From an uncultured candidatus Brocadiaceae bacterium (GTDB taxonomy: Bacteria > Planctomycetota > Brocadiia > SM23-32): 64,000 bases of DNA. Location: NCBI GenBank assembly GCA_964421565.1, contig CAYQXJ010000006.1, positions 154,679 to 218,678 of the forward strand, written 5' to 3'. The position numbers and the translations under genes were made by a program. This document shows, in pieces, positions 44,682 to 56,573 of the stretch. Position 1 is the first letter of the stretch. The number at the start of each line of letters is the position of its first letter. Below the pieces are notes generated by a model. The model saw only the letters and a list, made by a program, of their open reading frames with translations, did no database searches and was not told where the DNA came from.

Positions 44682-47600
44682 TCAGCGCACGCGGGTCTTG
44701 CTGCGCTTGTGGTCGTACATCCTGCTGTCCGCCTCGGCCATCAGCTTCTCCAGGGGCACGGGGTTGTCCGGCGGGCAGGTGACCACGCCGCGGCTGAGGG
44801 AGAGCCTGTAGTCGCGGCCGGCTGCCTCGTTGTGCTGCTCGAGGGCGCGCGAGAGCCGCTCCAGTATCTCGGCGGCTTCGTCCTGGTCGGCCTCCAGCGC
44901 AAGCACCGCGAACTCATCGCCTCCGATGCGGCCGAGAATGTCCGATTCACGGAAGGTGGATCGCAGGACCTCGGCCGTGCCGATCAGGGCGCGGTCGCCC
45001 TCCTTGTGGCCGAATGTGTCGTTTATCCACTTCATGTCGTCCACGTCAACGAAGATGATGAGGGCTTCGTTCGCTGTTCGGCGGGCGACCTTGAGTTGCT
45101 GGTTCGCCAGGTGGAAGAACCCGCGCCGGTTGTTCAGCCCCGTCAGGGAATCGACCAGGGACAGGTTGATCAGTTGCTCGCGCAGGGCGACGTGATCCGT
45201 GATATCCCGTGCGATGGCCGAGATGCCCGTTACGCGCCCGTTCTCGCCCTTGATCGGCGACATGGTAAGGGAGACGTTGATCCTGGCGCCGCCCCGCGTC
45301 ACGTTAACGAACTCGTGTTGTTGCAGGCGCTTGCCGCTGGCCACGTCTTCGATGATCTGGCAGAGCTCGGCCCGTCTCTCCAAGGGTGCCAGCACGCTCA
45401 TGTGGGTGCCCTGCACCTCGTCGGAGCAGTAACCGTAGACGCGCTCGGCGCCAGGGTTCCAACGCACGATGCGCCCCTCCACGGTGGCGTCAATGATGGC
45501 GTCGTCGGTCGACTCTACCACGGCGCCCCACTGAGCGCGGTTCTCTTCGAGGCTTCTGCGCTCGGTGATGTCGAGAGCAACGTCGACAGCGCCTTGCACT
45601 TCGCCGTCGGGACCGTGGACGGGATAGCCGCGCACTGCCCAGATTCTGCCGTCGTCGGACATCATCTCGGTTTGTTGGGGCTCGCCGGTCTCCATGGCGC
45701 GCACCACGGGGCAGTCGGCGCAGGGCTGCTCGCTGTTGTGCCACACCCCATGGCAGGGGCGTCCTATGATTTCCTCCAGCGCCACGCCAGCCTGTTGTGC
45801 GGCGGCCCTGTTCGCCCACTGAACTTTGAGGTCAGCGTCGCAGTAGATGACGATCTCTTCCATGGCGTCCAGAACGGCATCCTTTTCATGCTCGATGCGG
45901 CTTATCTCCTCCTGGGCCTTTCTCTGCGAGGTGAGGTCGCGAACGACAACGAGGATGCTTGTTACACGCTCCCCCTCGACGATGGGTATCCTGCGACTTT
46001 CGAACGTCACCGTCTGTCCCTGAACTGTCACAGTGACGACGTCCTTCTGCGGCTTGCCGGTGCTGAACATGCGCTTAAGGCCGCTCTCGCGCTCTTCCGG
46101 CAAAAAGGGGAAGGCTTCACGGAAGGGGGTGCCGACCAATCTGTGCTTAACGCCCAACTGTTGGCACCACTGGCGCAGTGCCCGGTTGGCGATTCGTATG
46201 CGCAGGTTGCGGTCGAGCACGAGGACGGCGTCGCTCAAGGCGTCGAGCGTTCTGCGGTAGCGTTCCTTCGACTTGCGCAGAGCGCGTTCGGCTCGCTGCT
46301 GGTCGGTGATGTCGCGGTCCACGCAGTACAGGTGGTATGTATTGCCCACGCGCACACTGGTTGCCGACCACGCGTAGGTGTTCTCGCGTCCATCCGGGCG
46401 CCTCCACGATGCCGTGCCCGTGCAGGGCAGGCCCTGTTTGAGATGTTCCCGTGTGCGCTGGCGCTCCTGGGGTCCGGCGTCGAACGAGATCAGTTCGTTC
46501 AGGTCCTCGGCTTGCTCTAACTCGCTGCGGCTGTAGCCGGACATCTCGACGAAGCGGTCGTTGCAGAAGATCAGTCTGCGGGCGTTGGTTTCCGGATCCC
46601 ATCGGCAGATGCCAATGCCGTCGAGTGCGGTCTCCGCGAGCAACCGGAACCGCTGTTCGCTGCGTCGCAGTCGCTTCTCGGCCCGGCGCTGTTCGGTGAT
46701 GTCGGTTATGAAGCCTTCCAGCGCCACCAGGTCGCCCCTGTCGTTGCGGACCCCGCGTCCTTGCTCCCACACCCAGCGCGGTTCGCCGTTTGCCCGCGTG
46801 ATGCGGTACGTCATGCGGAACGGGCGGTCGTCCTGCAGCGCCATCTCGACCTCGCGCCAGACGGACTCCCGGTCCTCCGGCACGATCAGTTCGCCATAGG
46901 CGACCTCGCGGTTGTCCACGATCTGGCGGGGCCGGTAGCCGGTAATCTCCAGGCATCCCTCGCTCATGAACTCCATGGTCCAGTGGCGATCTGTGCGGCA
47001 ACGGTAGGCGGCGCCGGGCAGGTTGCTCAGCAGCGTGGAGAGGGCGCGTTCCCTTTCCCTGAGTTGGCGCTCGGCCTGCTTGCGGGCTGTAACATCGCGT
47101 GCGATGACGGAGACGCCGATGATTCCGCCGTCTGCCCCGCGCAACGGCGTCATGGACATGGAGACCTCGATCGGGACCCGGTCACGCGAAAGGTGCACCG
47201 TCTCCTGCTGGCGCACCAGTTCTCCACTCGCCACGCTCAGAACAAGCTCCTTGAGCGAGTTCTGTTCGGCAGGCGGGCAGAGGCACCAGAAAGGCTGCCC
47301 CTGCATCTGGCCTGGGGTATAGCCATAGATGCGTTCCGCTCCGGCATTCCAACTCACGATGTGGCCTTCGGCCGTTAGCCCCACCACGGCGTCGTCGGAG
47401 GCCATGCTGAGCGAGGCCCACTGGCTGAGCATCTGCTCGGCGCGGCGCTGGTCCTCCGTCCAGCGGCCGACGGCCAGCAGCGCCACCGCATCCTCGCGAC
47501 CATTGCAGATGGGCACCTTCGTCCAGCGTTGCAGCCGATGGCGGTCCGTAGCGGGGTCGTAGCGCGTCATCTCCGTCACTACAGGCTCACCGCCCTTGAG

Positions 47601-48512
47601 CACCTGCTCGTCTTCCCTGCGGAACAGTTGGGCATGCTGCGGGTCGAACACGTCCAGGTCGGTCTTGCCCACGAGCTGTTGGGGTTCGAGGCAAAGGTCC
47701 TTCGCAAAGCGCTCGTTGGCGAACGTGAAGCGCAGGTCCCTGTTTTTCAAGAACACCCGGTCGCCGATGTGGCGCAGCACGGACCTGAGCTCAGCTTCTG
47801 TGCTGCCGAGGGCCTCCTCGGCTTGCCTGTGTTCGGTAATGTCCGTCACCATGCCCAGCAGACCCGCCACCTCGCCTTCTTCGTCGATGACGGGTGTCTT
47901 GACCACTTCCAGCACACGTTCGCCGCGCGGCGTGCGCAGCACGCTCAGGAAGGTGAGGGATTCTTGCGTGCCCAGCACGCGCTGATCTTCCGCCAGATAG
48001 CGCTCTGCCAGTTCCGCGCCGAACAGATCTGCATCCGTCTGCTCCGATATCTGTTCGGCTGTTGTGTCGAGCAGCTCTGCGAAGGCCTGGTTGGCGGTGA
48101 CGTAGACGGATTTCTGATCTTTAAAGAATATGCCACGAGAGACGTTCTCCAGCAGCAGGCGGTTCTTGCGTTCGGTCTCTTCAAGGGCGGCTCGCGAGGC
48201 GTTCTGCAGCAACGAATGGGCAAGAAATGCCCAGAAGACGGGGATCAGGACCTGGGTGGTGTCCGTGAACGTATCGACATTGGCCCAGTTGCCCAGCCAC
48301 TGGAGAGCGTCCCCTCCCGCCTTCAGCCCCATCAGGGCAAGCACGGTGGCGAGTAGGAGGCGCGTGTCCGTGGGGAACCCGCGTCGCCTGCCCAACAGGA
48401 CTATTGCCAGGGCGACAAGGGCCGCCGTCAGCGCAAGAGCGCATGTGGTGCCGACCAGCCACCTCATGGGTGAGCCCCCCTCCGCGGCTGGCCCCCAAAC
48501 GTCCGCCAGCAC
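44682..48512 (-). CDS. Multi-PAS sensory diguanylate cyclase (membrane-anchored, C-terminal GGDEF domain)
   Basis: There are two N-terminal TM helices and at least 6 PAS/PAC-like segments. The C-terminal GGDEF domain carries SLTGLNNRRGF...RIGGDEFAVL (the GGDEF signature). The length is 1276 aa. Confidence 0.8.
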   Translation of the reverse strand: MLADVWGPAAEGGSPMRWLVGTTCALALTAALVALAIVLLGRRRGFPTDTRLLLATVLALMGLKAGGDALQWLGNWANVDTFTDTTQVLIPVFWAFLAHSLLQNASRAALEETERKNRLLLENVSRGIFFKDQKSVYVTANQAFAELLDTTAEQISEQTDADLFGAELAERYLAEDQRVLGTQESLTFLSVLRTPRGERVLEVVKTPVIDEEGEVAGLLGMVTDITEHRQAEEALGSTEAELRSVLRHIGDRVFLKNRDLRFTFANERFAKDLCLEPQQLVGKTDLDVFDPQHAQLFRREDEQVLKGGEPVVTEMTRYDPATDRHRLQRWTKVPICNGREDAVALLAVGRWTEDQRRAEQMLSQWASLSMASDDAVVGLTAEGHIVSWNAGAERIYGYTPGQMQGQPFWCLCPPAEQNSLKELVLSVASGELVRQQETVHLSRDRVPIEVSMSMTPLRGADGGIIGVSVIARDVTARKQAERQLRERERALSTLLSNLPGAAYRCRTDRHWTMEFMSEGCLEITGYRPRQIVDNREVAYGELIVPEDRESVWREVEMALQDDRPFRMTYRITRANGEPRWVWEQGRGVRNDRGDLVALEGFITDITEQRRAEKRLRRSEQRFRLLAETALDGIGICRWDPETNARRLIFCNDRFVEMSGYSRSELEQAEDLNELISFDAGPQERQRTREHLKQGLPCTGTASWRRPDGRENTYAWSATSVRVGNTYHLYCVDRDITDQQRAERALRKSKERYRRTLDALSDAVLVLDRNLRIRIANRALRQWCQQLGVKHRLVGTPFREAFPFLPEERESGLKRMFSTGKPQKDVVTVTVQGQTVTFESRRIPIVEGERVTSILVVVRDLTSQRKAQEEISRIEHEKDAVLDAMEEIVIYCDADLKVQWANRAAAQQAGVALEEIIGRPCHGVWHNSEQPCADCPVVRAMETGEPQQTEMMSDDGRIWAVRGYPVHGPDGEVQGAVDVALDITERRSLEENRAQWGAVVESTDDAIIDATVEGRIVRWNPGAERVYGYCSDEVQGTHMSVLAPLERRAELCQIIEDVASGKRLQQHEFVNVTRGGARINVSLTMSPIKGENGRVTGISAIARDITDHVALREQLINLSLVDSLTGLNNRRGFFHLANQQLKVARRTANEALIIFVDVDDMKWINDTFGHKEGDRALIGTAEVLRSTFRESDILGRIGGDEFAVLALEADQDEAAEILERLSRALEQHNEAAGRDYRLSLSRGVVTCPPDNPVPLEKLMAEADSRMYDHKRSKTRVR

Positions 48513-49184
48513 CAGCAGGCCAGCAACACGGTGGCCCCCAGGTAGCAGGCGTGCTCCAGAAGGTTCAGCACGTCGGCAACCATTACCGCCTCGAGATTGG
48601 TCGCCAGCCAGCTTAGGACGAGCAGCGAGTACGCCATCAGAAAAAGGCGCAGTCCTGCCACCCGGCGGAGCCTATGACGGCTGAGGGCCAGAAAAACGCC
48701 CGTGCCGACGCCCAACAGCAAGGTTAGCATCTCGTTCTGCGACAGCATGGCAAACCGCTAAGATTGCACGATCTTCTTGAATGACAACGCTTTAGTGCGA
48801 CCGGAGGGTGCACGGCGCGCCTCCGGTGCCAGCGTCACCCAAGGGGGTTGCAAGCCGCGTGCCCGCATTGACGGCGCGGCAGTCGCCGGCGAGGAATGCC
48901 CCACGCGCTCCTGCAGAACTATGGGCGCTGCTATGGCGTGGGCAGTGCCCAAAAACCGGGCTGTCCAGGCCGCTGGCAAGCGGCAGCTCCTTACGCTTTT
49001 GCCGTGGCGCAATGCCCGGCCTGCAGCCGCCTCGGCGTCAAGGAAGGCCGTCATGGGGTGAAAAAAGAGCAACAGTCAGCATTCAGATTGCGCCTTGAAA
49101 CCTGTTTGGGATTTGCTATGCTAATCAGAACTGGGAGGATGTACACCATGTCGTTAGCGATTCCGAGCGAGGGGGGAAGTATTG

Positions 49185-50018
49185 ATGGCCCGAGTGGAAG
49201 AAGCCCTGCGCGATTTCGTAGATCGGGAAACTCGCCACGCCGTCTCCGACGTTATGGCGGACCTGCCCGAGCAACTGCGCCAGTTTCGTCGTGAGCTGCG
49301 TGATGTCCACAGAGCGCTCAACCAACTGAGCAGTGAAGTGCGTGGCCTCGCTGCTGCCGGTGCCTTCCGCAGCCCTGGCGGCCCGCAGGATGCCGAATCA
49401 ATGGCGTTTACCGCCGAAGGTCTGAAGTCGCTGCGAGAGCAGTTTGACCTGACCCAGCAGGAACTTGCCCAACTGTTGCAGGTCTCGCCCGTGACCGTCA
49501 CCGCGTGGGAGACCGGCAAGTCTTGCCCGCGTCGTTCGAATCTGGCGCAGATTGCCGCCATGCGCGAAGCCGACCAGGAGGAGATCGACGAGGCACTCGG
49601 CAGGCAACCCGTGCCCGACATCTCCGGCATAGACGTCAAGCGGCTGCGCCGGCGTCTCGGGCTGACGCAGAACGCACTCGCCGAACTGATCGGCGTATCG
49701 GCGGCGGCCGTTACCTCCTGGGAAACCGGTAAGACTATTCCCAGTCGGGACAATCGCCGCGCGCTTGCCGAACTCAGCGAGAAGCCGCTCAGCGAGGTGG
49801 AGGAGGAACTGACGCGCTCGGGCATCATGCTGCCGCATGAAGAGGCCATGTCGCCGGAGGAAATCCGCCAGATCCGCACCGCCGCCGGCCTCTCCCAGCG
49901 AGAGCTCGCCAAGGAGATCGGCGTCTCGGTCAACTCTGTCTCCAACTGGGAGACGGGCCGCACTGCGCCGCGTCGCGCCAGCGTTAAAGAACTGCTGCGC
50001 CTGCGCGAACAATCCTGA
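49185..50018 (+). CDS. Protein with three tandem XRE/Cro-C1-type helix-turn-helix domains
   Basis: There are three internal repeats of LTQxELAxLLxVSxxTVxxWETGKxxPxRxN. They are LTQQELAQLLQVSPVTVTAWETGKSCPRRSN, LTQNALAELIGVSAAAVTSWETGKTIPSRDN and LSQRELAKEIGVSVNSVSNWETGRTAPRRAS. A GAGGGGGGAAG Shine-Dalgarno sequence precedes the ATG at 49185. Confidence 0.7.
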   Translation: MARVEEALRDFVDRETRHAVSDVMADLPEQLRQFRRELRDVHRALNQLSSEVRGLAAAGAFRSPGGPQDAESMAFTAEGLKSLREQFDLTQQELAQLLQVSPVTVTAWETGKSCPRRSNLAQIAAMREADQEEIDEALGRQPVPDISGIDVKRLRRRLGLTQNALAELIGVSAAAVTSWETGKTIPSRDNRRALAELSEKPLSEVEEELTRSGIMLPHEEAMSPEEIRQIRTAAGLSQRELAKEIGVSVNSVSNWETGRTAPRRASVKELLRLREQS

Positions 50019-50144: not shown

Positions 50145-50220
50145 GAGGGCGTAGCTCAGCCGGCAGAGCAACGGACTTTTAATCCGTAGGTCGTGGGTTC
50201 GATCCCCACCGCCCTCACCA
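50145..50220 (+). tRNA. tRNA-Lys (anticodon TTT)
   Basis: The cloverleaf has an acceptor stem GAGGGCG/CGCCCTC, D arm GCTCAGCCGGCAGAGC and anticodon stem-loop ACGGA-CTTTTAA-TCCGT. Anticodon TTT is flanked by T and A. The T arm is GTGGGTTCGATCCCCAC. The discriminator is A, and an encoded CCA follows. Confidence 0.85.
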
Positions 50221-50537: not shown

Positions 50538-52433
50538 ATGATCCGCCCCCATCTCATCACCAATCGGGTGCGCCGAGCCGCACTCCGGCCGATTGTGCGG
50601 AAGGTGAACGATCTGGAAGCGCAGACGGCGCGCCTCTCCGACGCTGAACTGCGCCGGTCGGCGCCGCGGCTCAGGGAGTGTCTGAGCCGGGGGGCGGAGT
50701 TGGACGGGCTGATGCCCGAGGCTTTCGCCCTGGTGCGGGAGGCGGCGAAGCGCCAGATTGGCGAACGGCCCTTTGACGTGCAGGTGATGGGCGGCGTTGC
50801 CATGCACCACGGCTGGATCGCCGAGATGCAGACGGGCGAGGGCAAGACGCTGGCCGCCACACTGCCCGCCTTCCTGAATGCGCTGCCGGGCCGCGGCGTT
50901 CATGTAGTCACGGTGAACGACTACTTGGCCAGCCGCGACGCCGAGTGGATGGGCAGCATCTACCGCGCCCTGGGGCTCAGCGTGGGCTGCCTGGTGCACG
51001 ACGTGGGACCGCGCGAGCGTGCAGCGACCTACCGCGCAGATATTACCTACGGCACGAACAAGGAGTTTGCCTTCGATTACCTGCGCGACCAGCTTCGCGC
51101 GCATGCCGCGCGCAACGCTCCGGCCGTCGGCGTGTTCGAACGCCATGCGATGCGCACCAACGCGGGTGGTGGCAAGGTGCAGCGGGGGCATCACTTCGCC
51201 ATCGTCGATGAGGTCGATAGCATTCTGATCGACGAGGCGCGCGTGCCGTTGATCATCAGCGAGCGCGAAGGCGAGGTCTCGCCATGGGCTTCGGCATACA
51301 CTGAGGCGCGCGAGCTGGCGCTAAGGCTGCGGGAAGGGCAGGACTATATTCTGCACGAGGAGGAACGGGGCGTGCAGATGACCGTGCGGGGGATTGAGAG
51401 GGTGCGACAGGCTGCAGCGGGGGGGCGTCCCGGTCGTCCGTTCGAGCACCTGGTGGAACAGGCGCTGCGAGCGGAGCACCTGTTCCAGCGCGATCGTGAA
51501 TACCTGGTGGTGGACGACCACATCTGTATCGTTGACGAGTTCACCGGCCGCCAGATGCCCGATCGCTCGTGGTCACTCGGGCAGCACCAGGCCATCGAGG
51601 CGAAGGAGGGCGTGCCGGTAACCGACGAGAATCGCACCCTGGCATCGGTTACCTTCCAGCGCTACTTCAAGCTCTACGAGAAGCTGGCCGGCATGACGGG
51701 CACGGCCCGCGAATCGTCGGCGGAGTTCAGCAAGGTCTTCGGCCTGCCAGTGGCGGCCGTCCCGACCAACCGGCCGATGCGTCGGCGGCGGATGCCCTGT
51801 CAGGTCTTCGCTACATGGGCGGACAAGTACCAGGCCGTGGTCGAGCGCGTGCGAGAGCTTCACCGGCAAGGGCGCCCCGTCCTCGTGGGTACTCGTTCCG
51901 TACGCCGCAGCGAGGAGCTGAGCAGGCGGTTGAGCGAATGCGGTATAGAGCACAACGTGCTCAACGCGCGCAATCACGCCGCCGAGGCACGGGTCATCGC
52001 GGAGGCCGGGCAGCCCGGCCGCGTCACGATTGCCACGAACCTGGCGGGCCGAGGGGTGGATGTACTGCTCGGACAGGGGGTGGCGCAGGTGGGCGGGCTC
52101 CACGTGCTGGGAACTGAACTGCACGAGGCAAGCCGCATCGACCGCCAGCTCGGGGGGCGAGCCGGCCGCCAGGGCGAGCCCGGCAGTTACGAGTTCTTCC
52201 TGTCACTGGAGGACGATATACTGGGCCGGTGGAGCAAGACGCTGGGAAGTTGGCTGCGGTGCCGAGCGCAGAGGGCAAAGGGGGGCCGCGTCAGCCGGCT
52301 TCACCTGCCCTTCTTTCGGCTGGCCCAGCGGGGCATCGAGCGACGTCACCTGCGGATCCGGGTAGACCTGCTCGAGTACGACGAGCGCCTGGAGGAGATG
52401 AAAGGGAGCCTCGGGGCGCCCGCGTGGGGCTGA
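50538..52433 (+). CDS. SecA-family ATPase lacking the C-terminal scaffold, wing and tail domains (SecA2-like, truncated)
   Basis: The N-terminus FDVQVMGGVAMHHGWIAEMQTGEGKTLAATLPAFLNALPGRGVHVVTVNDYLASRDAEWMG matches SecA NBD1 nearly position for position. DEVDSILIDEA is the DEAD motif. NBD2 (LVGTRSV...TIATNLAGRGVD) and the start of the helical scaffold (SLEDDILGRW...LLEYDERL) follow. The protein then ends at 631 aa, where canonical SecA continues for another ~270 aa. Confidence 0.75.
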   Translation: MIRPHLITNRVRRAALRPIVRKVNDLEAQTARLSDAELRRSAPRLRECLSRGAELDGLMPEAFALVREAAKRQIGERPFDVQVMGGVAMHHGWIAEMQTGEGKTLAATLPAFLNALPGRGVHVVTVNDYLASRDAEWMGSIYRALGLSVGCLVHDVGPRERAATYRADITYGTNKEFAFDYLRDQLRAHAARNAPAVGVFERHAMRTNAGGGKVQRGHHFAIVDEVDSILIDEARVPLIISEREGEVSPWASAYTEARELALRLREGQDYILHEEERGVQMTVRGIERVRQAAAGGRPGRPFEHLVEQALRAEHLFQRDREYLVVDDHICIVDEFTGRQMPDRSWSLGQHQAIEAKEGVPVTDENRTLASVTFQRYFKLYEKLAGMTGTARESSAEFSKVFGLPVAAVPTNRPMRRRRMPCQVFATWADKYQAVVERVRELHRQGRPVLVGTRSVRRSEELSRRLSECGIEHNVLNARNHAAEARVIAEAGQPGRVTIATNLAGRGVDVLLGQGVAQVGGLHVLGTELHEASRIDRQLGGRAGRQGEPGSYEFFLSLEDDILGRWSKTLGSWLRCRAQRAKGGRVSRLHLPFFRLAQRGIERRHLRIRVDLLEYDERLEEMKGSLGAPAWG

Positions 52434-52454: not shown

Positions 52455-54635
52455 TCATATGAGGAAGCGCCGATGCAGCATGCGGCGCAGCCGCAGCCAT
52501 ATGCGCCGCCCAATGGTCTGCTCGCCCACGATGAACCTCACTGTGCCTGCGCTGCCGACTGGCAAGGAGCGGGCGTCAGGACCAAGGACGACATCCACTC
52601 TGTACCAGGGCTCCAGGGTTCGCGCGCCCTGGGGGGCCTGAGGGTCCAGCAAAATGGGGCCTCCGGCGGCGCTTGTCAAGGGGGCAGGGGGCGCCTGATG
52701 GGTTGCCGAGGGGTGTATCCGCTCGATGGTGCCCGTGAATATGCGGGCGGGCAGGGCTCGGAATCTGATGCGCGTTCCTCTCACGTCCTCACTCTGAAGC
52801 GCGGCGATATCCGCCGTCTCAACCGCTGCCGTCACGCGGGTCGCCTCCAGGGAGGCGACGGCAAGCACCGGCTCCCCCATGCGCAGGAAGCGTCCGTGAA
52901 CGCGATCGAGGTCGGGCGCGATGACCCTGCCGTCGAACGGCGCATGGATCGCCATGGCGTCCTGGCGCCGCTGCGTGGTTTGGAGGTCCTGCTGCAGGCG
53001 CGACAACCGTTCGCGTTCGACAGTGGCCTGCGTGGGATTGCCCGTTGCCTCGAGCCTGCGGAGTCTCGCTCGCGACTCCTGCACTGCCAGTTCCATGCGA
53101 CGCACTCCATGGTCCAGCAGTTCGTTGCTCAGAGTTGCCAGCAACTGGCCGGCCTCGACCTGCTGGCCATTGCTAACACGCACGTCGGTCAGAAAGCCAG
53201 GCCATTCGGCGCGGAGCATCGCTTGCTCGGCAGGCTCCAGCGCACAGGGCGCCCGCACGGCCGAGTCGATGGGCACCGCTCCGAGCAGCAGCACCACCGC
53301 CGCAACGAGACCTGTGAACACACCGATTGCCCGAGCGCGCACTGGCCGGGTCACCTTGTCGATAAAGATGTACTTGAGCAACTTACTAAATGGATTCAGA
53401 ATCCAGAGTATAGCGACCAGCACAGCCAGGGCTACGCCAAGGGCGAAGAACTTTGAGGCGATCATCAGCAGGATGCCAGTGACTATGAAGCAGCGATAGA
53501 GCGTGGCCAGCACGCCGTAACACAGGAACCACACCTTCTCCCGGGACAAGTCAGTGTTGAGCGCAACGCGTTCACCCACAAGATAGCGCTTGAACAGGTA
53601 CTTCACGTAATCCGTTGAGCGCTGCCTCAGATTGGGGATCTCAATGAGATCGGCCAGGATGTAATAGGCATCGTAGCGCAGCAGCGGATTGCCGTTGAAC
53701 AGCAATGCTGACACGCTGGCGATGAAGATTATGTTGTAGAGTATCGTGCGGATGGTGCCCGGCTCCAGCAGCAGCCAGCCGAAGACTGCCAACGAAGCGA
53801 TGAATAGCTCGACCATCATGCCCGCCGCGCCGACCAGCACCTTCGGCCACTTGCGCGGGAAAGCCCACACCGGCGTCGTATCTACGTAGAGCACGGGCAT
53901 GAAGATCAGGAACATCACGCCCATGCGGTGCACCTCCGCCCCATAGTGCCGGGCGGCGAACGCATGCCCGAATTCGTGACATCCCTTTACCAGCACGAAC
54001 GCCAGGTAGAGATACACAAGGTTGCCCGGGGCCAGGATGCCGTTCGCCCGCGAAGCAAACGCCTCGACGTTGTAGAAGAACGCGAAGAGCGCCGCCCCGA
54101 GCGTCAGCAGCCAGACCACGAACACCTTGCGCGAGAAGACCCACCGAACGTAGGGCAGGGTCGCCCGAAGGAAGCGCTCCGGGTCGATGAGCGGAATGGT
54201 CAGGTACATGAAACTGCTCAGCTTCTGTTTCACGCGCTGCCGACGCTTCTTGCCGGCCCGCTCGACCGTCCAGCGCGCTTCCTCGTCGCCGCTGCTGACG
54301 GTCAGGTTCGCGTGCCGCAGCATGAAGACGAACCCGACCAGGTCGCGGAAGGAAGGCGCCCGGCTGCCGTAAGTCGCCTTCAGCCGGTCGTGGATGGTGC
54401 CAAGGCTTGTCTCGCCGTTGAGCTGTTCCAGTATCTCGCGCTCAACTCTTCCGACACGAAAGTACTGGAGGGTGACGGGGTCCTGCAGCACGAAGTGGAC
54501 CTCACCCCCGAACCGCTGCGGCACGATGTCAGCATCAGGCCGTAGCCGTGGGGTTCGCGTGCGCAAGTGGGGCACGCGGTCCTCAAACTCCAGCTCTGCC
54601 GAAAGGTCGTATTCCGGCGTTTTCGGTCCGAGCAC
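52455..54635 (-). CDS. Fusion protein combining an N-terminal PqqD/RRE-like domain, a peptidase M50 (site-2 protease) membrane domain and a C-terminal HlyD-like periplasmic adaptor domain
   Basis: The N-terminal ~100 aa (VHFVLQDPVTLQYFRVGRVEREILEQLNGETSLGTIHDRL) resemble PqqD-like peptide-binding domains, tentatively. The polytopic region carries HEFGHAFAARHYG (an HExxH zinc motif of M50) and a downstream N..P...D motif. The C-terminal third has HlyD-like coiled-coil and beta-barrel segments (LEATGNPTQATVERERLSRLQQDL...). Confidence 0.65.
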   Translation of the reverse strand: MLGPKTPEYDLSAELEFEDRVPHLRTRTPRLRPDADIVPQRFGGEVHFVLQDPVTLQYFRVGRVEREILEQLNGETSLGTIHDRLKATYGSRAPSFRDLVGFVFMLRHANLTVSSGDEEARWTVERAGKKRRQRVKQKLSSFMYLTIPLIDPERFLRATLPYVRWVFSRKVFVVWLLTLGAALFAFFYNVEAFASRANGILAPGNLVYLYLAFVLVKGCHEFGHAFAARHYGAEVHRMGVMFLIFMPVLYVDTTPVWAFPRKWPKVLVGAAGMMVELFIASLAVFGWLLLEPGTIRTILYNIIFIASVSALLFNGNPLLRYDAYYILADLIEIPNLRQRSTDYVKYLFKRYLVGERVALNTDLSREKVWFLCYGVLATLYRCFIVTGILLMIASKFFALGVALAVLVAILWILNPFSKLLKYIFIDKVTRPVRARAIGVFTGLVAAVVLLLGAVPIDSAVRAPCALEPAEQAMLRAEWPGFLTDVRVSNGQQVEAGQLLATLSNELLDHGVRRMELAVQESRARLRRLEATGNPTQATVERERLSRLQQDLQTTQRRQDAMAIHAPFDGRVIAPDLDRVHGRFLRMGEPVLAVASLEATRVTAAVETADIAALQSEDVRGTRIRFRALPARIFTGTIERIHPSATHQAPPAPLTSAAGGPILLDPQAPQGARTLEPWYRVDVVLGPDARSLPVGSAGTVRFIVGEQTIGRRIWLRLRRMLHRRFLI

Positions 54636-54650
54636 CGTTCACATCCCCAA

Positions 54651-56573
54651 TTACCACCACACGTGCAACCGCACCCAGTCGACCAGTTGTCGCGTTAGCA
54701 CCCATGTTACGTGTCGTCGGCCCACGCGCACCCTGGCCGCCCCCTCCATTCCCGGGCGCAGCGGCCGGCCACTGGCCGGGATTATCGCTTCTGCAATGTA
54801 GTAACTGGCCGCGTCCTGAGTCTCCGGCAACGGGCGCACGCCACCCACTTTGAATTGTATCTCTCGGCCGGGCTGCGCCTTGGTGGTGAAGGTCCCAGGT
54901 TGGCCGGGCTCCACGTACGTCACATCGCCCTGAGCCACCCGCATCTCTAACAGCAGGCGGTCCAGCGGCGCCACCTCCACCAGTTGTTCGCCCATTTGCA
55001 CGGGCCGGCCGATATCCTGGCGCAGGTCGCCGGCTATCACGATGCCCTCAACACGGGCGCGCAGCGTGGTGCGCGCCAGGCGGTCCTCCAGGAGCTGAAC
55101 CTCTGCGTCGAGCGCCTGCAGCCGCGCGCGGGCCTCGGCGTACTGAGCCGTTTTGCCTTCGTCCAGCAGCACCCGTGCTTGCGCCTGTTGGCTGCTGCGG
55201 TTGCTGAGCGCCTCCCGCAGGCGCAACTCCAGCTCGTCTCGCTCGAACTCGACCAGCACCTGGCCCGGTTCCACCGTGTCGCCCGGGCGAACCGGCGCCG
55301 CTTCGATCGTCGCATCGAAGGGCGCGGCATAGACGTACAGTTCCGCCGGCGCCAGACGGCAACTGCCACTCACGCTGAAATGCACCCTTCCGAACACGCC
55401 GAACAGCACCAGCGCGGCGAGCACGACGGCCGCGACCTTGCGCCATGGGTGTTCACGCCCGAAGAGCCACTTGCCGGCGCTCGCCAGCCCGTCAGCGACT
55501 CGCTTCGGCACACCGCGATCATTCTCCAGCGCCAGCCCGAGCACCGGGCCGACCTGCCCGGCCAGAACGTGCACCACCTGCCGTTTCTCTTCGCTGAATG
55601 CCGACTCGCCGAACTCGAACGTCCATACCCCCACCAGCCTCTCATCGCGGCGCAGCGGCACGCTGTGTACGGCCTGCGAGCCGCCGCTTCGCGCCAGCCG
55701 CTCGTGCTGCGGGCAGCGGGTCAACTGGCGGGCGCGTTCCTGATCCGGCGCACCGGCATCGAAGTGGCCCGTTTCGCCACTGACCTGGACCTCGGCCTGC
55801 GCCGCCTGCAGCAATCGGGCGGTATTTGTGCGCCGATCTACGATATCCTCGCCGGAGATTGCGACTACCCGCACCTTGCGGCGGCTGACGAACCCGAGAG
55901 ACACGCGCGCGGCCCCGAGTTGCGAGCGCGCTTTGTCAACCAAGACCTGGGCCATCTGAAGTGCAAGGTCGAACGCGAGCGCCTCTGCCAGGATATCCCA
56001 TGCGCTGCTGAGCGCCCCATAGAGCGCCTGGAAGTGCTCTGCGCGGCTGCTGGCAACTCGCAATGCGCCGAACTGAGCGAGAAGGCTTAGCAGCGCGACG
56101 CCGGCGTCCGAGAGGGCAGGGGCGCCTTCACCTACGACGATGCTCACACAGCCCATGGCGTCGGCCGTAGCCTCCGCCGGGAAGCCGACGGCGACATACG
56201 CCTCGCCTGTCAGCAGCTCGCCTGCCGGCTCGGGGACCCTACGGTAGCACACGATGCGCTGCTGCGCGGTGTCGGCTGCCAGCTCCTTCAACCTCTGCAA
56301 CCACTGGTGGGCCGCTTCGCCGCTGACTTTCAGCAGCAGCTCTGCGGCCAGCGTGAACTCGCCCTCGTCGCCCGGCAGCCAGTAAGCCGCGTACGTCGCG
56401 TCTGCGACGCTTGCCATGGCTTCCAGCAACTCGCGGACGAACTGCTCGGGCTCCACAGCGGCCTCGGACCGTTCGCGGAGCCTCTCGATAAGCGCCAGCA
56501 GCCTCATCCGCGCCGGCTCGGGCTCCGCCGGGGTCCCGGGGCGCTCGTGACCGTGTGGGTCCTGCCGGCTCAC
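54651..56573 (-). CDS. GAF-domain / HlyD-like membrane fusion protein
   Basis: The N-terminal ~330 aa look like GAF-like alpha/beta regions. A single TM helix (VAAVVLAALVLFGVFG) follows. The C-terminus is a HlyD-type adaptor with coiled-coil and lipoyl-like beta-barrel segments (PGQVLVEFERDELELRLREA...RARVEGIVIAGD). Confidence 0.65.
   Translation of the reverse strand: MSRQDPHGHERPGTPAEPEPARMRLLALIERLRERSEAAVEPEQFVRELLEAMASVADATYAAYWLPGDEGEFTLAAELLLKVSGEAAHQWLQRLKELAADTAQQRIVCYRRVPEPAGELLTGEAYVAVGFPAEATADAMGCVSIVVGEGAPALSDAGVALLSLLAQFGALRVASSRAEHFQALYGALSSAWDILAEALAFDLALQMAQVLVDKARSQLGAARVSLGFVSRRKVRVVAISGEDIVDRRTNTARLLQAAQAEVQVSGETGHFDAGAPDQERARQLTRCPQHERLARSGGSQAVHSVPLRRDERLVGVWTFEFGESAFSEEKRQVVHVLAGQVGPVLGLALENDRGVPKRVADGLASAGKWLFGREHPWRKVAAVVLAALVLFGVFGRVHFSVSGSCRLAPAELYVYAAPFDATIEAAPVRPGDTVEPGQVLVEFERDELELRLREALSNRSSQQAQARVLLDEGKTAQYAEARARLQALDAEVQLLEDRLARTTLRARVEGIVIAGDLRQDIGRPVQMGEQLVEVAPLDRLLLEMRVAQGDVTYVEPGQPGTFTTKAQPGREIQFKVGGVRPLPETQDAASYYIAEAIIPASGRPLRPGMEGAARVRVGRRHVTWVLTRQLVDWVRLHVWW

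Follow-up and report, generated by a model that had tools for sequence, protein, structure and literature searches.

A conserved Planctomycetota protein family with three XRE-type helix-turn-helix domains in one chain, probably acting as DNA-binding regulators

The gene described here encodes a single chain with three XRE-type helix-turn-helix (HTH) domains, hereafter called the tri-HTH protein. It lies in a stretch of 64,000 nucleotides (the window) from an uncultured member of the Planctomycetota. A divergent operon is located on its upstream side, while a tRNA gene and a group of export-type genes are found downstream, as follows:

44682 to 48467, minus strand: gene of a multi-PAS/GGDEF diguanylate cyclase of 1261 aa, a conserved neighbour and candidate target
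48464 to 48748, minus strand: divergent gene of a 94-aa membrane protein, a conserved neighbour and candidate target
48749 to 49184: divergent intergenic region of 436 bp, the likeliest place for operators
49095 to 49122, plus strand: promoter-like TTGAAA-16-TATGCT with a TG extension (consensus match only)
49169 to 49176, plus strand: Shine-Dalgarno-like GAGGGGGG, 8 nt before the ATG at 49185
49185 to 50018, plus strand: tri-HTH protein gene, 277 aa, stop codon included
50145 to 50220: tRNA-Lys(UUU), 127 nt downstream of the tri-HTH gene
50538 to 52433, plus strand: gene of a SecA-like protein of 631 aa with DEAD, preprotein-binding and P-loop domains
52455 to 54635 and 54651 to 56573, both minus strand: M50-peptidase/HlyD fusion and GAF/HlyD fusion genes beside the SecA-like gene

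The open reading frame spans 49182 to 50018 on the plus strand. Translation probably begins with the ATG at 49185, since GAGGGGGG lies 8 nt before it and the first residues, MARVEEALRD, line up from position 1 with MGKVEDALRD of the orthologues. A sequence-only reading of this DNA had described one polypeptide with three consecutive XRE-type HTH domains, and the profile searches bear this out. Pfam HTH_3 (PF01381) matches the protein in three stretches (132.3 bits against a cut-off of 23, E 5.9e-39), and the same three-stretch pattern is given by HTH_31 (108.9 bits against a cut-off of 27), by HTH_19 and by many other XRE-type models. The shared motif put forward earlier, L(T/S)QxELAxxxxVSxxxVxxWETGKxxPxRxN, is essentially right, the exceptions being E to A in HTH2 and K to R and N to S in HTH3. 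The comparison of the protein with itself that had been suggested picks out the offsets 71, 76 and 147 aa (BLOSUM62 window scores of 77, 73 and 67); all other offsets score at most 30. The repeat unit is thus 71–76 aa, which replaces the earlier figure of about 95 aa. The non-coding stretch of about 430 bp and the nearby tRNA-Lys were likewise found where they had been placed. Residues 1–75 of the protein form a distinct helical region that is not an HTH. The regulator type itself is very common; the gene offers an unusual version of it, not a new kind of system.

The predicted structure and the family alignment divide the chain into the following parts:

49185 to 49361, plus strand: aa 1–59, N-terminal helical hairpin (AlphaFold2 helices 2–25 and 27–59)
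49362 to 49409, plus strand: aa 60–75, low-confidence linker (pLDDT below 50 at residues 59–66)
49410 to 49604, plus strand: aa 76–140, HTH1, five-helix XRE domain, recognition helix S101-P-V-T-V-T-A-W108
49623 to 49820, plus strand: aa 147–212, HTH2, five-helix XRE domain, recognition helix S172-A-A-A-V-T-S-W179
49848 to 50015, plus strand: aa 222–277, HTH3, four-helix XRE domain, recognition helix S248-V-N-S-V-S-N-W255

The second helix of the hairpin carries a four-heptad a/d pattern (L31, F34, L38, V41, L45, L48, V52, L55), and R32, L48 and L55 are nearly invariant in the family alignment of 33 sequences. Owing to the regularity of this pattern, the hairpin is probably a coiled-coil oligomerisation element. 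The N-terminal region (76 aa) has no Pfam family at E below 0.08 and no PHROG family. Speculatively, its Arg-rich helix (LRxxRRxxRxL in conserved form) might detect a ligand, for example c-di-GMP. The linker that follows (aa 60–75) varies in both sequence and length across the alignment.

All three HTH domains are predicted to adopt the lambda-repressor-like fold of four to five helices. Throughout the 33-sequence alignment, every domain keeps the Arg of helix 1, the Gln starting helix 2, the V-S of the turn, the W-E ending helix 3 and the Pro thereafter, and the Ser beginning helix 3 is among the invariant columns of each domain. The invariant residues include R84, Q91, W108, E109 and P115 in HTH1 and R155, Q162, S172, W179 and E180 in HTH2. 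The family consensus recognition helices are SPVTVTAW for HTH1, SxASVTSW for HTH2 and SVNSVSNW for HTH3. The conserved backbone-contact residues R84/Q91, R155/Q162 and R231/Q238 suggest that the protein binds DNA in a sequence-specific manner. The residues at the canonical base-contact positions differ among the domains. They are small or hydrophobic in HTH1 (V103/A107) and HTH2 (A174/S178), and are Asn at both positions in HTH3 (N250/N254). In the 434 repressor these positions are occupied by residues 29 and 33, presumably its base-contacting Gln29 and Gln33. Thus, the three heads are unlikely to read an identical sequence. In an ungapped alignment with MqsA, N250 and N254 fall on Asn97 and Arg101, two residues reported to be important to DNA binding by MqsA (PMC5422877).

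The spacing of the domains is also uneven. The distance from Trp to Trp between HTH1 and HTH2 is 70–72 aa in 57/57 family members, whereas that between HTH2 and HTH3 varies from 69 to 124 aa. In the linker between HTH1 and HTH2, L138 and R140 are invariant and P144 is nearly so. AlphaFold2 run on the family alignment gave a mean pLDDT of 87 and a pTM of 0.54 for the full length, and a pLDDT of 92 and a pTM of 0.70 for the HTH1-HTH2 fragment modelled alone; the pLDDT of the linkers is about 92 between HTH1 and HTH2 and 66 between HTH2 and HTH3. Judging by spacing and these model scores only, HTH1 and HTH2 appear to be a pair of fixed geometry with HTH3 as a tethered head.

Searching 5.8 billion proteins turned up 55 clusters, with E down to 1e-108; they come from Planctomycetota metagenome-assembled genomes (MAGs) and share the architecture of the window protein. 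Nearly all of these clusters hold proteins of 267–305 aa with 95–100% query coverage and 42–67% identity. Their members, when named at all, are called 'helix-turn-helix domain-containing protein [Planctomycetota]' or 'YiaG', and the labels on orthologous loci include Planctomycetes bacterium SM23_32, Candidatus Brocadiia and Brocadiaceae MAGs. The window protein shows the N-terminal hairpin and the three HTHs in the order and spacing that define this Planctomycetota family. Of the proteins retrieved, 65 are 250 aa or longer and match the N-terminal profile; 59 of these carry three HTHs, five carry four and one carries seven. Moreover, the identity of corresponding domains between species (65% for H1-H1, 53% for H2-H2, 57% for H3-H3) exceeds that of different domains within one protein (35–42%), which indicates that the triplication predates the family and that each position has become specialised. 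The gene is best explained as chromosomal and vertically inherited in a Planctomycetota lineage. The MAG B1Sed10_231 contains two tri-HTH paralogues (L009 and L020), so the family is not strictly single-copy; the second of these is 39% identical to the window protein and has a different context.

The intergenic region was searched for operators, as the sequence-only reading had proposed tripartite direct repeats there. No such repeat was found in the 436 bp, where only two-copy matches of 14–17 nt and weak inverted repeats occur. Triple k-mers at spacings of 8–26 nt were no better than in shuffles, no palindromic repeat was above chance, and no Rfam match was found in 48749 to 49184. The promoter-like site in this region is one found against 0.3 expected, and the orthologues have TGnTATAnT boxes 60–110 nt upstream of their starts. 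Additionally, 13–24 orthologous upstream regions were compared by 8-10-mers with mismatches, by 6-7-mer enrichment and by 4+4 dyads with gaps of 0–16 nt. Neither a tripartite direct repeat nor any conserved operator was found in them, and no shared k-mer or dyad rose above shuffles beyond the ribosome-binding site and the -10 boxes. Among the 8-10-mers with mismatches, GGAGGGGG-type k-mers were the sole motif above shuffles. Against a mostly coding background, TTGGGA and TTCTGA are enriched upstream at inconsistent positions; of the two, only TTGGGA (p about 2e-7) stays significant once the number of k-mers tested is corrected for.

Some closer relatives show further upstream elements. Three orthologous loci (L016:5873-5893, L056:5873-5893 and L057:5872-5892) have the palindrome TTCTGAG-N6-CTCAGAA immediately before the -35 region of the tri-HTH promoter, where it is a candidate operator; the window lacks it. 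The 5'-leader blocks GGATAGGGTG and GTACACCA are common to positions 49125–49184 of the window and to the closer relatives L056-L058 and L016, and those relatives also have the block AAACTTGAGCGGAGGG. These conserved blocks could be an operator located in the leader or an RNA structure.

The conserved neighbour of the tri-HTH gene is the divergent pair. The 94-aa gene and the PAS-GGDEF gene overlap by 4 nt and constitute an operon (44682–48748, minus strand). The PAS-GGDEF protein contains Pfam PAS in seven stretches as well as GGDEF, and its translation has an intact GGDEF motif with RESD, an RxxD I-site, five residues upstream. No Pfam or PHROG family was found for the 94-aa membrane protein. 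By tblastn, this small gene lies upstream of the tri-HTH gene in about 14/24 orthologous loci, and the gene calls of L056-L058 place an unannotated gene of 95–99 aa at its position. In most orthologous loci the divergent pair adjoins the tri-HTH gene, and genes for a GH4 glycosidase and a DUF1570 protein usually come after the pair. The operon is conserved in most loci at 45–67% protein identity, and the pair is kept even where the regulator is only 45–53% identical to that of the window. The exceptions are four loci with 1.7–3.3 kb of other genes between the tri-HTH gene and the membrane-protein gene, one locus without the pair that has a smaller PAS-GGDEF gene directly downstream of the tri-HTH gene, and two orthologous loci with no GGDEF gene nearby. 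Because of these insertions and of the loci lacking a GGDEF neighbour, the synteny could reflect inheritance and not function. In L016:583-4662 the GH4 and PAS-GGDEF genes fall into many frame-shifted tblastn pieces, which suggests assembly indel errors rather than pseudogenes.

The downstream flank, on the other hand, differs in nearly every orthologous locus. A tRNA follows the tri-HTH gene only in the window and in L016, and in L057 a phage-type integrase (L057:6884-7900) lies immediately 3' of the gene. The 3' flank thus looks variable and possibly integration-prone. The anticodon that ARAGORN read in the tRNA of L016:6877-6951 has only two bases, an anomaly that may stem from an assembly indel. 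The sequence-only reading had pointed to the tRNA-Lys and export module next to the gene; a functional link to the tRNA-Lys and the SecA-like and HlyD genes is rejected, as these are not conserved neighbours in the orthologous loci; given the downstream variability, the adjacency is coincidental. The SecA-like protein apparently lacks the C-terminal part of SecA, and a 26-nt match of 15861 against 51529 hints at a second SecA-like gene in the window.

Taken as a DNA-binding regulator built on three HTHs, the protein is identified with high confidence, and most likely it is an oligomerising multi-site transcription regulator. The best explanation, favoured though by no means secure in its details, is a regulator with three HTHs of the XRE class (MqsA/YiaG subtype) behind a heptad-repeat hairpin. 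The N-terminal coiled coil would oligomerise the protein. HTH1 and HTH2, whose linker is conserved and constant in length, would act as a built-in pair replacing the non-covalent dimer of ordinary XRE repressors, and HTH3, on its variable tether and with Asn at both canonical base-contact positions, would add a third and different subsite. With a fixed pair and a tethered head, a single chain would read a long asymmetric site of roughly 25–35 bp instead of a short palindrome. The sequence-only reading had suggested a long asymmetric operator or a built-in dimer or trimer; a built-in multimer on such an operator continues to be the most sensible mechanism, as the fold, the backbone-contact residues and the domain-specific recognition helices are all conserved. 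The likeliest targets are the promoter of the regulator itself and the divergent operon of the membrane protein and the diguanylate cyclase, and this would tie the protein to c-di-GMP signalling. These targets are proposed only tentatively and are somewhat doubtful.

The main rival to such an operator-specific regulator is a global or architectural DNA-binding protein, in which three loosely specific heads together with oligomerisation would occupy many dispersed or degenerate sites or bridge DNA. The upstream comparison speaks for such a role and against the operator-specific model, since the recognition helices are strongly conserved yet the upstream regions of the family share no conserved motif; that comparison, however, had low power, with 13–24 short GC-rich sequences. 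Likewise, polar side chains are missing from the canonical base-contact positions of HTH1 and HTH2, but the Asn/Asn recognition helix of HTH3 looks specific. A single copy per genome and the partly broken synteny fit a global role as well, although the divergent layout with the PAS-GGDEF operon is kept across most loci. Furthermore, related arrays reach four and seven heads, and up to 33 without the N-terminal domain. Altogether, a global role is rather unlikely.

Far less probable is that the HTHs mainly bind proteins or RNA and ribosomes, as in MBF1/EDF1, and not DNA. The protein has weak similarity to EDF1 chains and to aMBF1, but the score for the latter (TIGR00270, 55 bits against a cut-off of 110) illustrates how far it lies below the family cut-offs, and in structure as in sequence its best neighbours are DNA-bound repressors and antitoxins. 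The whole protein is acidic (pI 5.5) and so is HTH1 (pI 4.6), which would suit such binding, whereas HTH2 and HTH3 are basic (pI 8.2 and 10.7).

Very little credence is given to the reading of the protein as a mobile-element antitoxin (MqsA-, HipB- or HigA-type) or a phage repressor of the cI/RstR type at a tRNA integration site. It draws on the NCBIfam profile TIGR03830 of the MqsA family (114.6 bits against a cut-off of 61.8), on TIGR03070 and RstR scores above their cut-offs, on the tRNA-Lys 127 nt downstream and on the integrase directly after the gene in one orthologous locus. These profile scores are, however, sums over three HTH copies and concern the HTH part only; the TIGR03830 match is limited to about positions 62–115 of 127. 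The N-terminal zinc-binding CxxC...CxxC domain of MqsA is absent, the protein having a single Cys (C114). No toxin gene lies on either side: an MqsR-like toxin is absent, the neighbours are the 94-aa gene and the tRNA-Lys, and no gene for a HipA kinase, the partner to be expected of HipB/Y4mF (TIGR03070), is present in the neighbourhood. There was no tblastn match among 50,697 phage records, composition and GC content are uniform, and the position relative to GH4 and PAS-GGDEF is kept across genomes. Both the antitoxin and the phage-repressor readings were accordingly rejected as largely refuted.

Finally, that the internal repeats arose through an error of assembly or annotation, which the sequence-only reading had named as a possible refutation, has practically no probability and no point in its favour, since the three DNA copies have diverged (57/165 positions invariant, 35%, with no long DNA repeat behind them in a repeat search), contigs from three independent SRA runs encode an identical tri-HTH protein, which together exclude an assembly duplication, and about 55 orthologous clusters share the three-domain layout with position-specific conservation.

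The regulator may be set beside several known systems. Matches to solved structures include Aca10, Aca2, P22 c2, the CUT domains of HNF-6 and SATB1 and a POU domain, and no solved chain aligns to more than one HTH of the protein. The single-domain XRE/Cro-C1 proteins, such as the C-terminal domain of MqsA, HigA2, P22 c2 and the 434 repressor, have one HTH per chain and act as non-covalent dimers on two half-sites. In contrast, the tri-HTH protein links three diverged HTHs and is without a zinc domain, toxin partner or peptidase/sensor domain. The engineered single-chain 434 repressors are artificial proteins with covalently linked DNA-binding domains, and they embody the 'built-in dimer' concept suggested by the fixed HTH1-HTH2 pair. 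Like the present protein, Wmk of Wolbachia prophages (NF047948) naturally combines XRE HTHs in one chain. However, Wmk has two domains, a phage context and no N-terminal coiled coil, and the tri-HTH protein scores 36.5 bits against the NF047948 cut-off of 300, so it is not a member of that family. Eukaryotic POU, HNF-6/ONECUT, SATB1 and CUX1 proteins also possess several lambda-repressor-like heads, and CUX1 has three CUT repeats; yet these heads are paired with homeodomains, and no relationship in sequence can be detected. Of the characterised proteins retrieved, the closest functional analogue is Cbp1 of the Sulfolobales, whose HTHs are homeodomain-like and not of the XRE class. It has three tandem HTHs with short linkers that arose by duplication, and these align 5' to 3' on one site of roughly 24 bp, each contributing to another part of it (PMC10883916). 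Cbp1 thereby works as proposed for the tri-HTH protein, but it is archaeal and binds CRISPR repeats, and the two are compared by function and layout. No CRISPR array or other repeated DNA family was found in the window.

Beyond this family, single-chain XRE arrays recur in metagenomic proteins. When 1.84 billion representative proteins were searched by profile, 171 matched at E of at most 1e-30 and 3,972 at E of at most 1e-10. Among 147 newly listed top representatives, at least three HTH repeats occur in 136, at least five in 72 and at least eight in 17, the largest array being a protein of 4162 aa with 33 HTHs; the median repeat spacing among arrays is 75 aa. With 136 of the 147 carrying 3 to 33 HTHs, such arrays are a recurrent architecture. 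The sequence-only reading had called multi-HTH chains uncommon, which needs qualification: the exact architecture seen here makes up a conserved family of about 55 clusters, but arrays in general recur. Full-text literature searches found no study of multi-XRE-HTH proteins. Examples in metagenomic proteins are P0056, P0061, P0062, P0070, P0077 and P0092 and the locus L060:218-3226; the gene of P0061 is found beside toxin-antitoxin genes. One array of 1002 aa with 10 HTHs adjoins Gp49/HTH and HicAB toxin-antitoxin genes, and a protein of 2332 aa has nine HTH repeats by profile and an N-terminal part that is sigma-70-like by eye. Lactococcus plasmids carry weak relatives, whose annotation says no more than 'helix-turn-helix transcriptional regulator'. 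Such arrays may be loosely comparable to zinc-finger or CUT/POU arrays. A wider proposal, improbable in its entirety, is that XRE HTH arrays represent a natural modular DNA-reading architecture in bacteria, of which the present family would be a compact member with a fixed number of heads; its rigid pair and tethered HTH3, doubled by the coiled coil, would read a site of 25–35 bp (50–70 bp for a dimer) and control a c-di-GMP synthase operon.

XRE regulators are among the commonest bacterial transcription factors, and the textbook cases are non-covalent dimers on short palindromes. The practical stakes of this gene are modest, as it encodes an uncharacterised regulator of uncultured Planctomycetota. 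Its wider meaning lies in the architecture, which recurs in hundreds of metagenomic proteins with 3 to 33 XRE heads. If the proposed mechanism is true, the tri-HTH family would be a natural counterpart of the engineered single-chain repressors and would show bacteria building long asymmetric recognition sites from a standard module.
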